From Terriglobia bacterium (GTDB taxonomy: Bacteria > Acidobacteriota > Terriglobia > 2-12-FULL-54-10): a stretch of 64,000 bases of DNA. Positions 20,040 through 23,997 of this stretch are shown here, piece after piece (position 1 is the first letter of the stretch; each line of letters starts with the position of its first letter). The notes below the pieces were generated by a model. It ran no database searches and had not been told where the DNA came from. It saw only the letters and a program-made list of their open reading frames with translations. Position numbers and translations under genes: made by a program. Location of the stretch: NCBI GenBank assembly GCA_965198025.1, contig OZ240237.1:1400577-1464576 (forward strand), in the 5' to 3' direction.

Positions 20040-22229
20040 CTAGAACGCCTCCGGAAGATGAAACGTCAGGATAGCGTTCAGGGTTTTGTCCGAAACGATC
20101 ACGTTCCCGTTCTTGGCGTCTACGGCGATTCCGCGCGCATCCGACAACAGACCGTTCGGTCCGCCGATGGTATAGCGCGGCGGCGCATTTCCGTTGTCGA
20201 AAACGCTCCACACCCCCACGTAATCCTCCGGCAGGTATCTTCCCCCCGGACGGACGGCGGCGAAAATCATCCCGCTCTCCGGATTGGTCGTCAACAGCGA
20301 AGCTCCTTGGGCCCCCTCGCTCGAAATGAACCGGAGCGGTTTGGCCATGCCGGAAGCCTGGCGGTCGTAAATGGCCAGCCCCCTTCCCGAGACGATCAGC
20401 AGATCATGAACCGGGTCCACGGTCAGGCGGCTGGCGCGAATTCCGGAATTCAGTCCCCCGAGAATCCGGATGGGAGCGGTGTCTCCATCGGCATCGCGTG
20501 GAAAGACCAGAATTCGGTCAATTTGCGGAACGAAGATCTCCCCGTGAATCCAATCCACGGCCAGCGCCTGGGGGTTCTTTAACTGGGTGCTCGGACCGAA
20601 TATCTTGCGAACAGGCGCGACGTTGCCGTTGGCGTCGCCTCGGAAGGTAAGGATGGCATAGGCGTAGAACTGCGGAACCACGATTTCGTCGGTGACCGGG
20701 TCATACGCCATGTCGTGCATGGTGCGTGCAAACAAGGTATTCTGGCCGGCGATCTCTCGGGTGGGCTGTGCTCCTCCATTCGCCATCCTGGCGAATGCCG
20801 CAACCTGCGGATGGCCCACTCAGTTGGCGACAAGAATTTCTTCTCGTTTCGAATCGTACGCCACCGTGTGTGGATTGCTGAGCTTCGGCGAGGGCGCCGA
20901 CGTGGGCCCGCTCCGAATCACGCGGATGGGGGGTACGTTTCCGCCGGCGTCGATCGGAAAGACCGTGGCGGAGTGGCTGCCGAAATTAGCGACCCACAGT
21001 TCATTGTTTTGCAGGTCCACCGTGACTCCGGTCGGGTTCTTGATCATTGTCTGGGGCCCCTGAAGGACACGGATCGGCGCCACGTCCCCGTTCGCATCCG
21101 CCGAAAACACGATAACGGAGTCGCCCGTGTCGTTGGCCACAAAGATCTCGCCGCGCTCCGAGTGTGATGCCAGCGCCGTCGGCCAGTCCAACTGCGTCCG
21201 GGGACCCTGGATCACGCGGAGCGGAGCGGTGTCACCCTCGGCGTTCTTGGAGTAGACCGTTATCGAGGCTGGATCGATCTTGCCCGAGCCCGGAAATGCT
21301 CGCCGTCGCCCCACCGGGTAGTCCGGCCGGTCGACGTTGCCTCCTCCTCCCCCTTCTGTAAGCGGCGGACGCACATTGTACGTCCCCCAATTGGACACAA
21401 AGATCTCGTTTCGCCGCGTGTCTAGCGTGATGCCGTGTGGGTCGGCCAGTCCCGTTTGGTCTCCCTGCAGAATCCGCAGCGGTGCATCATCGTCCTGGGC
21501 GTCCTTGGCGAATACCACCACGGCGTGATCGTCCTGGATCGTGAGGAATAACTCCCGTTCCTCTTCGTCTGCCACAATGCCGAACGTGGTATGCGGGGTC
21601 CGGAGTTTCTTTTTCGGTGCCACGTTGCCCCGGGCGTCGCGGCCGAACACCGGTATCCAGTTCATTGTGTCATTGTTGACGCCGAAGATGTCGCCGGTGG
21701 CCGGATCGATATAGATGCTGCACGCATATTCGAGAAACGTTGCTGAGCCGCCGATCATGCGCTTCGGTTCGCTCATCGAGGCCGCAGCAGGCGTATTCTC
21801 CAGCCGGTCGTAGACCAGAATCCGCGACAGGTTTTCCTCCGCCACGACCACTTCGTTCCGGATGGGATCGACAGCAATGCCGGCGAATCCGAAATGCGGG
21901 TCCGTAACCGTATAGAGAGGATCCCGCTGCCGGATAGCTTCTCGCTGCTCCTCGCTCGGACGGGCCGGAGCCTCTGCGCTGGAGCCTTGCGGATAGAGCG
22001 CCGCCGCCAGACTGGAGGAAGCGCTGGCGGGAACCCATTCGCACATCTCCCCATTCATTTCCGGCATGGCTTCCCAGGAAACCAACCGGTCGGCGCCGAA
22101 TGCCGAGGTCTGCCGTGCCTTCTGATTGCCGGATAACACCAGCAATCCGGCAATTCCCAGCATGCAAAGACCAGCCAGCAGCCCGGTCCTCCGAAACGAA
22201 AATCTGTTTCGAACTGTCTTCAAAGCCAT
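20040..22229 (-). CDS. Exported NHL-repeat beta-propeller protein with in-frame UGA at codon 470; candidate selenoprotein (729 aa)
   Basis: ORFs 20820..22325 and 20040..20819 are contiguous and in frame, separated only by TGA (20820-20822); the repeat unit continues across it (EILVAN-U-VGHPQVAAF); N-terminal hydrophobic helix; RBS AAGGGGG before ATG 22229. Confidence 0.75.
20761..20819 (-). promoter_or_regulatory. Candidate bacterial SECIS element
   Basis: mRNA after UGA: GUGGGCCAU-CCGCA-GGU-UGCGG-CAUUCGCCA-GGA-UGGCGAAUG-GAGGAGCACA-GCCCAC; two perfect hairpins with G-led loops, closable by GUGGGC/GCCCAC. Confidence 0.6.
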
Positions 22230-22248
22230 CTGTTGCCCCCTTCTATGT

Positions 22249-22280
22249 GTCATTCTGAGCGCAGTGAGGAATCTGCTCTC
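22249..22280. repeat. REP-like intergenic element
   Basis: GTCATTCTGAGCGCAGTGAGGAATCTGCTCTC; same family as 4852 and 30792. Confidence 0.6.
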
Positions 22281-22293
22281 AGTTCCATTCCAC

Positions 22294-23997
22294 TTACCAC
22301 GTCTCAATCTTGAGCAGCTTACCATTGCCGTACTTGGGAAGAGTTCCCAGCCACATGATCGAATGTGCCGCAGAACTCCTTGGAGAAGGACGGGGCGAGC
22401 GTGCCATCACGTGTCGCTCCGGCAGCAGGTACTGTAACATTTCGCCGGTTTCGGAATCCAGTCGAACCAGCCTGTCGTGGCGATAGAGCTCCACCCACAC
22501 GTCGTCCGTGTTCCGATCTACGCCTGTGCCGTAGGGCATCGCCATCGGTAGCGGAATCGTATATTCGGTGATCTTGCCGGTTTCCGGATCGAGCATTCCG
22601 ATTTTGCCGGCGTTGTATTCCGCAAACCAGATGCGGTCCCGCGAATCGTAGTCGCCGCGGCGGGGAAACGCATTCGGGGTGGGAGTCGGATACCGCGTAT
22701 GCTCCTCGGTTGCAACGTCGATGCGGTCAATGTCGCTGTCCCGATGTTTCATCAAATAGCGGTTGCCTTTGCTGTCGGTCACGTCCCCATAGATCCCTCC
22801 GGTGCGCTTGCCTTCCTTGAAGGGCAGTTCGTAGAGCGTCCATTTCCCATTCCCCTTGTCGGGCTCGAAATATCCGGGGTAGTAGGTCCCGTAATAGTCG
22901 TCCGTGTGGAACCAGATACGGTTGCGGACGGGGTCGGTGCCCAGCGAGAGGAACCGCCGCGGATTCTTGTCCGGAAGGATGTAGCTCGAAAATTCTTCTG
23001 TATTTCTATCGAACTTCAGCAGCCCGCCGCTCCAGGCATAGGGCGTCCAGGGGTTTTCGTCCTTGTCGAAACTGATCTCCTGGCCTCCGGGGTGCACCTC
23101 CGGCTTTCCGGGTGGCGGAGGACTCTCCCAGTATTTCATCTCGCCCGTCTCGGGGTTCAACATCCCGATGTAGGGCCAGCGCCAGTCGGTCCACCACACC
23201 ATCCCGTAGCGGTCCACCTCGATATCATGCAGCTCGGCGTCGGGATAGGGGATTTCGTATTCGGTGAACAGGACCCGCGTGGAGCGCCCGGTTGGCCGGG
23301 GACTAATCTTCGCATTGGGCAATGCCAGCGGCTCCGGTCCGCGAATCCTGGCCAGATAATCTGCGATCAAGGAGTTTTCTTCCTCCCACCGTGGGTCCTC
23401 GCGGTCGAGCGGCGCTCCGGGATACACGCCGTGCGTTTCGGCTGCCCATTCCGCTCCGTGAATCCGCCTGCCGCGCATCAGCCGGACAATCTTCAGCCAG
23501 TTTTCCTTGTCAAACCGGAACCGCTGCAAGGTGCCTGTGTGGCAATGAATGCACTCGTTGCTGATCCGCCTGACCTGCTCCGGAGTCCCCGGCAGACTCA
23601 GTAGCCAATCCGTCGAGGTGATCTGCTGGTCCATTTCTTTTGCGGGGCCGAGTATAAAGTCCACCTGCATCTCCCGGCCGTTCTGGATCGTTTCCGTCCG
23701 GCGGCTCGGTTCCAGGCTGTCGGCTCGCGCCACCTCCACCACGTACTGGCCCGGCTCCAGCTTCGGGAAGCGATACTGCCCCTGTGCGTTCGTGGCCACC
23801 GCCTTCGCCCGGTAGTCGCCCTGCATCTTCGCCCGGATCAGGATTCCTTCCAGCGGCTCCCCAGCTTCGGAACGCACCACCCCTCCCAACGAGCTTTCGA
23901 CAAACGGGTAGGTCAATTCCTGGGAAAACGCCGGCCGCGCGGAAATCACGCCAGACACAAGCAGGACCAGCACGAGAGCCAACTCGGTACGCGTCAT
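22294..23997 (-). CDS. Exported protein: carboxypeptidase-regulatory-like domain, monoheme c domain and Vgb-lyase-like beta-propeller
   Basis: Signal peptide (..ARPAFS-QE), TNAQGQYRFPKLEPGQY, CIHCH, repeated TEY.IP / IWF.E / IGMLDPETG. Confidence 0.85.
   Translation of the reverse strand: MTRTELALVLVLLVSGVISARPAFSQELTYPFVESSLGGVVRSEAGEPLEGILIRAKMQGDYRAKAVATNAQGQYRFPKLEPGQYVVEVARADSLEPSRRTETIQNGREMQVDFILGPAKEMDQQITSTDWLLSLPGTPEQVRRISNECIHCHTGTLQRFRFDKENWLKIVRLMRGRRIHGAEWAAETHGVYPGAPLDREDPRWEEENSLIADYLARIRGPEPLALPNAKISPRPTGRSTRVLFTEYEIPYPDAELHDIEVDRYGMVWWTDWRWPYIGMLNPETGEMKYWESPPPPGKPEVHPGGQEISFDKDENPWTPYAWSGGLLKFDRNTEEFSSYILPDKNPRRFLSLGTDPVRNRIWFHTDDYYGTYYPGYFEPDKGNGKWTLYELPFKEGKRTGGIYGDVTDSKGNRYLMKHRDSDIDRIDVATEEHTRYPTPTPNAFPRRGDYDSRDRIWFAEYNAGKIGMLDPETGKITEYTIPLPMAMPYGTGVDRNTDDVWVELYRHDRLVRLDSETGEMLQYLLPERHVMARSPRPSPRSSAAHSIMWLGTLPKYGNGKLLKIETW

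Follow-up and report, generated by a model that had tools for sequence, protein, structure and literature searches.

A propeller gene family with an in-frame UGA very probably decoded as selenocysteine, and its heme-c/Vgb-fold neighbour, in an uncultured Terriglobia bacterium

Bacterial selenoprotein genes, of which fdhF of E. coli is the prototype, carry an in-frame UGA followed by a bacterial selenocysteine insertion sequence (bSECIS), a hairpin with a small loop; they have cysteine-containing homologs and go together with selA, selB, selC and selD. Enzymes in which a cytochrome c is fused to a propeller are known from cytochrome cd1 nitrite reductase and the quinohemoprotein dehydrogenases. 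Here we analysed two neighbouring genes in a window of 64,000 nucleotides from an uncultured Terriglobia bacterium (Acidobacteriota; contig OZ240237.1, positions 1,400,577 to 1,464,576): gene A (22294-23997, 567 aa, stop TAA at 22294-22296 included) and gene B (20040-22229, 729 codons from the ATG at 22227-22229 to the stop TAG at 20040-20042, included, when TGA is translated as U). Both lie on the minus strand. They are co-oriented and 64 bp apart, as the original prediction had stated when it took them for a two-gene periplasmic module. Gene B shares all of the above features with the fdhF type, and differs from the known bSECIS genes in that it encodes a double NHL propeller destined for export instead of a thioredoxin-fold protein or a Mo/W enzyme, and in having 27 paralogs in one genome. 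With a probability of roughly 0.78, we regard A and B as independent neighbours that come from two different, hugely expanded families of exported beta-propellers (about 48 and 27 copies), B being selenocysteine-decoded and membrane-anchored and A a heme-c fusion.

The only in-frame TGA of gene B is codon 470 (20820-20822, minus strand), and reading through it joins parts of 469 and 259 codons into a product of 729 residues. The source genome, a single contig of 3.76 Mb, contains 27 B paralogs (39-65 % identity). Every one of them has a single in-frame TGA, and all these TGAs share one alignment column within the motif (V/L)(P/A)N-U-V-(A/G/S)-H-P-Q. We searched 40 related genomes and recovered the family in 11 of the 13 that belong to the same taxonomic family; the other 27 genomes of the class gave one match only, a weak one. 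Exactly one TGA is present in 147 of the 150 matches listed from the related genomes, and of the three exceptions two have TGC (Cys) at the DNA level (genome G009) and the third is a fragment that ends short of the site. Public metagenome-assembled genomes (MAGs) of Acidobacteriota, belonging by record title to Terriglobia, Bryobacterales/Solibacteraceae-like lineages and Vicinamibacterales, provided 92 B copies representing 75 loci, 86 of them with TGA and six with TGC at this position. In the 119 full-length database homologs, position 470 is Cys in 118 and Gly in one. The genome also encodes the decoding machinery: selD (347 bits), selB (370 bits) and selA (571 bits) each exceed their curated cut-off, and a tRNA-SeC with the anticodon TCA is present. 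TGA is at the same time the commonest ordinary stop codon (676 of 1605 long open reading frames, ORFs), thus UGA is not reassigned genome-wide. Judged from these comparisons, the UGA of gene B is very probably decoded as selenocysteine (Sec), as had been proposed, and the membership of gene B in an uncatalogued, massively expanded selenoprotein family is well supported.

The gene for SelD (genome positions 2894015-2894953) itself has one in-frame TGA, and SelD of this bacterium is probably a selenoprotein as well. Outside the close relatives, a B-family match at E <=1e-20 was found in at least one of 300 other genomes sampled from the phylum, which is a rough lower bound as three candidates were scored per genome. 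The only match beyond the home family in this sample (G148:C1:1087494-1089777, locus L040/L042) keeps the TGA and lies in two pieces in different frames, or is split; this copy may be frameshifted or recently transferred.

The consensus for bacterial SECIS elements in the main text of a 2026 review (PMC13188914) asks for a loop of 3-9 nt on a stem of 4-16 bp, a spacing of 16-37 nt from the UGA, a G in the first two loop positions in the arrangement N1-G-[G/U]-N-N2 with N1 and N2 pairing, and a minimum free energy (MFE) of -7.5 kcal/mol or lower. Gene B has a hairpin that satisfies all four constraints as worded there. It lies at 20777-20797 (minus strand; nt 26-46 counted from the U of the UGA), 23 nt downstream of the UGA, has a stem of 8-9 bp, the loop A-G-G-N-U, whose A and U can pair, and an UGA-to-loop spacing of 30 nt, and folds with an MFE of -11.8 kcal/mol. 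We based the entropy and pairing analyses on 107 distinct TGA-type sequences, 103 of which reach -7.5 kcal/mol or lower. Third-codon positions are constrained after the UGA, with entropy not exceeding 0.76 bits between nt 15 and 42 and 0.23 bits at nt 15, 24, 30, 33, 36, 39 and 42, and they vary freely between nt 45 and 63 (1.45-1.96 bits). For the Arg in the loop, about 96-99 % of the sequences use AGG, although this codon makes up only 6.6 % of Arg codons genome-wide. Two wobble positions form the pair 27-45, which is paired in 77 % of the sequences against 41 % expected and occurs as A-U, C-G, G-C and U-A. When only the 27 own copies are considered, 91.5 % of cells pair, in comparison to 36-56 % when the partners are slid, and six pairs are changed on both sides, a count reached in none of 500 shuffles.

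The decisive observation comes from the copies with a cysteine codon. In four of the six TGC copies the F-A-R peptide is retained but spelled TTC GCG CGG or CGC, by which the hairpin is abolished, and so these copies provide a natural control for the SECIS at an unchanged peptide. A covariance model of the element (R1) recovered in the genome its 27 training copies only, at 51.9 bits or more; the next match scored 22.3 bits, from which it follows that no other gene family of this genome uses the element. SelB would bind this hairpin and direct Sec insertion into the product of a single gene. Such a decoding mechanism is the ordinary bacterial one, and the novelty lies in the protein family.

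A second, small hairpin is located between the UGA and the SECIS (20798-20810, minus strand, nt 13-25, loop G-G/A-U). Its spacing of 14 nt is below the consensus range and its role is uncertain, but two divergent paralogs keep it by double changes at pairs 16-22 and 17-21. In the paralogs at 179857 and 1540647, the peptide after Sec is changed to V-S-x-P-R-I-S and both hairpins are kept by compensating changes.

That the TGA is a real stop, with B representing two genes (propellers of 469 aa and 259 aa) or a pseudogene, is how the public annotation treats the family, as many of its database representatives stop at query residue 469 or start at 471-473, and a GTG indeed follows directly after the TGA. 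We consider this explanation highly improbable. The TGA is kept in frame in every paralog of the genome and in nearly all of the public copies, where it is replaced by Cys codons only, and the constrained and covarying hairpin after it is lost when the codon is TGC. The two frames are contiguous, hence there is no requirement for a ribosome-binding site between them. The protein model (see below) also puts residue 470 between two strands, 464-469 and 475-480, of the same blade, which means that a stop at this codon would split a blade. It follows from the truncated database representatives that annotation pipelines miss the B genes; the family is found in public databases under the names 'YncE', 'lactonase family' and 'hypothetical protein'.

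The AlphaFold2 model of the read-through product, built on 39 aligned family members, has a predicted local distance difference test score (pLDDT) of 88.7 and a predicted TM-score (pTM) of 0.84. It consists of an N-terminal helix (residues 12-31), a disordered tether (approximately 33-83) and twelve four-stranded blades. The hydrophobic helix (22137-22196, minus strand) is preceded by Arg/Lys and is a putative signal anchor, and all 27 paralogs possess a hydrophobic 19-mer after basic residues (mean Kyte-Doolittle 1.6-2.9). Propeller 1 (aa 109-447; 20889-21905, minus strand) has six NHL blades according to VIA-align. Propeller 2 (aa 448-729; 20043-20888, minus strand) has another six, as seen from the strand pattern of the model and from VIA rows that extend to residue 725-729, e.g. 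that of peptidyl-alpha-hydroxyglycine alpha-amidating lyase (PAL, 3fw0_A, Z 25.9). Pfam reports NHL (59.1 bits, cut-off 20) and Lactonase (39.8 bits, cut-off 21.7), and with the score over the cut-off and the six-bladed NHL fold, gene B qualifies as an NHL repeat propeller (PF01436). Residues 110-440 superpose on six-bladed NHL domains, best on that of TRIM71 (9jur_A, Z 29.0, root-mean-square deviation (rmsd) 2.1, 246 residues aligned, model range 110-424) and similarly on TRIM2 and NHLRC2; for this part of the model, Z ranges from 29.0 to 27.9 and rmsd from 2.1 to 2.8. The likeness is at the level of fold only, with 17-19 % identity, and gene B differs from the matched proteins, PAL included, by having two fused propellers and an anchor in the membrane, and by its invariant Sec/Cys-Arg-His set, for which we found no counterpart in them. 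The NHL domain is visible by VIA-align and not by Foldseek with the whole model, where the matches were limited to generic tandem WD40 propellers (TM near 0.3). The gene B profile gave weak NHL-repeat matches only among PDB sequences, the best with E 2.3e-9. We also considered 6-phosphogluconolactonase/lactonase as an identity of gene B and rejected it (NCBIfam equivalog NF008258, 26.9 bits against a cut-off of 370).

Sec470 is placed by the model in a surface loop of blade 7, the first blade of propeller 2, beside Arg502 and His505. These two residues belong to the motif Arg502-Thr-Met-His505 (20715-20726, minus strand) in the loop running into the blade after the Sec blade, and they are invariant, both in the 119 full-length homologs and in the further sets of 107 (107/107) and 27 (27/27) sequences. 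His473 is less strict: 98 of the 119 homologs have it, and most of the others carry Gln or Asn instead. Another conserved residue is Cys63 in the motif M-C-E-W (22041-22043, minus strand). This cysteine is shared by 105 of 107 Cys-type homologs from the database and by 23 of the 27 own paralogs, and it lies in a flexible segment of the tether with pLDDT below 50. The divergent paralogs at 179857-181839, 1540647-1542617, 1594186-1596192 and 3695191-3697149 are without the M-C-E-W cysteine. We suggest that the B product would be held in the inner membrane by its N-terminal helix with both propellers facing the periplasm, that Sec470 might act as the redox-active nucleophile of an oxidoreductase, and that it could be recycled through a selenenylsulfide with Cys63 as the candidate resolving cysteine.

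Alternatively, Sec470 could be a metal ligand instead of a free redox nucleophile, in a Sec/His centre, as the original prediction had it, with His473, His505 and perhaps Cys63. Sec is bound to Ni in [NiFeSe] hydrogenase and to Mo or W in formate dehydrogenase, and propeller enzymes often carry a metal on the face formed by these loops, PAL and lactonases being among the structural neighbours of gene B. The conservation of C/U470, R502 and H505 and the frequency of H473 would fit such a centre, but H473 is replaceable, the sequence matches no known metal-binding family, and there are no recurrent accessory metal-insertion genes beside the 27 B copies. By analogy with these enzymes a metal site is conceivable, though we find it less likely, and we prefer to see in Sec470 a putative redox nucleophile.

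If the UGA is indeed Sec, this bacterium owes 27 selenoprotein genes to the B family alone, which would suggest that uncultured Acidobacteriota have a strong need for selenium. The deep-Sep paper (PMC12013277) gives 46 genes, from many families, as the largest bacterial selenoprotein set, and only three selenoprotein genes in the sole Acidobacteriota genome tested there. The 2026 review tabulates 119 prokaryotic selenoprotein families, and its main text including this table (PMC13188914) has no occurrence of propeller, NHL, lactonase, repeat, Acidobacteri, PF01436, PF10282 or PF08450. A full-text literature search listed no article on selenoproteins of a propeller, NHL or Acidobacteria family, nor on heme-c/Vgb-like fusions. 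As the B proteins are predicted to be exported and have a propeller and not a thioredoxin fold, they would widen the known bacterial use of selenium.

Gene A belongs to a different family. Its product starts with a signal-peptide-like segment, followed by a CarboxypepD_reg sandwich, an all-helical segment with the motif CIHCH and a propeller, and its AlphaFold2 model has pLDDT 89.2 and pTM 0.89. The first segment (about aa 1-25; 23923-23997, minus strand) has the hydrophobic N-terminus MTRTELALVLVLLVSGVISARPAFSQ and forms a helix at residues 3-27 in the model. The CarboxypepD_reg beta-sandwich (PF13620, aa 37-116; 23650-23889, minus strand) is recognised with 47.8 bits (cut-off 32.3, E 1.9e-12). 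The heme-c motif C149-I-H-C152-H153 (23539-23553, minus strand) stands between it and the Vgb_lyase match, and Met174 (23476-23478, minus strand) is a candidate distal heme ligand. The genome contains about 48 ORFs of this family, 41 of them with one CxxCH and most others with CxxxCH. C149, C152, H153 and Met174 are invariant in all 40 paralogs of at least 500 aa that we aligned, Met174 also in alignment A3, and 113 of the 114 database homologs have one CxxCH, the remaining one CxxxCH. The single heme motif between a beta-sandwich and a Vgb-like propeller, which had been read from the sequence, was therefore confirmed by sequence, Pfam and structure matches, and it is conserved. Residues 120-240 match no Pfam family at E <=10, including no cytochrome model, and for the heme segment a language model points only weakly to domains that bind heme (scores 0.76-0.79).

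The seven-bladed propeller of gene A (aa 241-567; 22297-23277, minus strand) has the Vgb-lyase fold. Pfam Vgb_lyase (PF24684) exceeds its cut-off of 50 with 66.3 bits, VIA-align superposes virginiamycin B lyase of S. aureus (2z2n_A) with Z 34.9, rmsd 1.9, 293 of 293 residues aligned and 21 % identity (runner-up Z 28.7), Foldseek finds 2z2o with E 2.5e-22 and TMt 0.88, and the A-family profile reaches E 9.6e-50 against PDB sequences. The S. aureus enzyme (PDB 2z2n, 2z2o, 2z2p, 2qc5) shares the seven-bladed fold with residues 241-567, but it has only about 300 aa and no heme, whereas in gene A the propeller is preceded by a signal peptide, a beta-sandwich and a domain of cytochrome c type. Like cd1 nitrite reductase and the quinohemoprotein dehydrogenases, gene A has a c-type heme domain before a beta-propeller and is predicted to be exported; unlike them, it has no Pfam match to cd1 or pyrroloquinoline quinone (PQQ) propellers and its propeller is Vgb-type with seven blades. 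Gene A thus appears to encode a periplasmic protein in which a mono-heme cytochrome c is joined to a propeller of the Vgb-lyase fold, where both the heme and the location are predictions. The possibility of a true Vgb resistance enzyme was rejected, as the NCBIfam models for Vgb(A) and Vgb(B), each with a cut-off of 600, give 58 and 54.6 bits. For the catalytic residues of Vgb, e.g. the His270 that appears in the PDB 2z2p title, the HMMER alignments with gene A are out of register between repeats. Public names of the family are 'streptogramin lyase', 'virginiamycin B lyase' and 'carboxypeptidase regulatory-like domain-containing protein', and proteins automatically named 'streptogramin lyase' in environmental genomes that are heme-c fusions are not to be counted as resistance genes.

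The export signals claimed for both genes correspond to hydrophobic N-termini, which we found in A as well as in B; export itself is a prediction from sequence and model. The gap between the genes (22230-22293, minus strand) contains, as described, a ribosome-binding site and a repetitive extragenic palindromic (REP)-like element. The former is the Shine-Dalgarno-like run AAGGGGG at 22236-22242, 6 nt before the ATG of gene B. The latter is a 30-nt element at 22247-22276 with only six genomic copies when up to 4 mismatches are allowed in the 24-nt core, and is accordingly a low-copy REP-like repeat. Other copies of this GTGTCATTCYGAGCGMAGCGAGGAATCTGC-like repeat are at 759395, 1151301, 1152223, 2696614 and 3739344, two of them only 0.9 kb apart. 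When scanned for terminator-like and promoter-like sites, the gap had neither. A sigma-70-like promoter match, based on consensus only, is located upstream of gene A (24039-24068, minus strand, TTGAAG-18-TATGAT, 9/12), and a tRNA-Leu (CAG) lies still further upstream of both genes (24252-24338, minus strand). The next gene downstream of gene B is convergent. With a promoter-like site only upstream of A, no such site and no terminator-like site in the gap, and a convergent gene past B, the transcription unit probably consists of A and B alone.

The original prediction went beyond co-transcription and saw in the pair a dedicated periplasmic redox or lyase system, where electrons would be traded between the heme c of A and the Sec site of B. 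The probable common transcript and the predicted export of both proteins would suit such a system, and the A-B junction is bridged at near identity by contigs of three studies, which means that the pair is stable within the species and nothing more. The survey of gene neighbourhoods revealed that the two families are unlinked. Only two of the 27 B copies in the source genome lie within 500 nt of an A-family gene, compared with 1.4 expected by random placement, and only the locus studied here is co-oriented, the other pair being convergent. The 11 closest B orthologs in other genomes (49-78 % identity) have no A gene in their flanks of about 1.5 kb (0/11), and an A ortholog with 78 % identity has no B within 707 nt downstream. 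Among the 92 public B copies, surveyed with flanks reaching up to 5 kb, four share their locus with an A-family gene and two have one within 500 nt, and in none of the 92 is A upstream on the same strand. Proteins with CxxCH are not enriched beside B copies either (2 of 54 flanking genes, background 3.6 %). A and B are not a conserved functional module, and their adjacency is species-specific; a dedicated redox or lyase system of the two is therefore improbable. We give similarly little credit to a broader version, in which the B family would be a set of hyper-expanded periplasmic selenoenzymes with the Sec470/Cys63 pair, a substrate-diversified oxidoreductase toolkit, served in trans by the approximately 48 heme-c/Vgb-fold proteins as electron partners, and this locus would be the sole remaining co-encoded donor-acceptor pair. 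We favour independent neighbours that would be transcribed together at this locus.

Several observations weigh against this explanation or parts of it. Taken as one unit, the 76-nt region at the UGA folds no better than shuffles (z -1.29); the SECIS signal resides in the 21-nt hairpin. An Rfam scan of 19000-25000 at E <=10 detected no SECIS family, only the tRNA and chance matches. The hairpin overlaps the conserved peptide F-A-R-L-A, because of which its conservation is partly driven by the protein. Cys63, which we propose as the resolving partner of Sec470, is absent from four of the 27 paralogs. One RNA-labelled run (of 12 listed runs) contained a 244-nt contig identical to 20338-20581 and one match to the REP only; this sole signal from an RNA library is in gene B downstream of the UGA, bridges neither the UGA nor the gap between A and B, and may be DNA carry-over. 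Finally, there may be a local functional tie between A and B, as the pair is kept in the near-identical contigs of the three studies and is probably on one transcript.

The neighbours of the 27 B copies were surveyed with crude gene calls (longest ORF first), and no consistent partner was found among them. The most recurrent are TonB-type outer-membrane barrels with a CarboxypepD_reg domain (six loci), followed by amidohydrolases, UbiD-like decarboxylases and PSD/PSCyt proteins (four loci each), and by DUF1552, ankyrin-repeat and amidase proteins (three loci each). PSD/PSCyt and DUF1552 occur as pairs near B copies (4 and 3 loci), and the loci with UbiD-family decarboxylases include one in the window (15739-17223) and one at 1722127-1723605 of the genome.

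Short-read contigs from three DNA runs have breaks and 5-10 fold jumps in summed depth at 20682-20828 and 22152-22298. These regions correspond to the SECIS/NUVAHPQ region and to the REP-like element, both of which are repeated within the genome, and for this reason MAG assemblies fragment at these genes. Divergent from the promoter region of gene A there is an ORF of 510 aa (24446-25978, plus strand) with the twin-arginine-like start RRRFLKSSTAGLVVGALAG, which from its sequence is a putative amidohydrolase.

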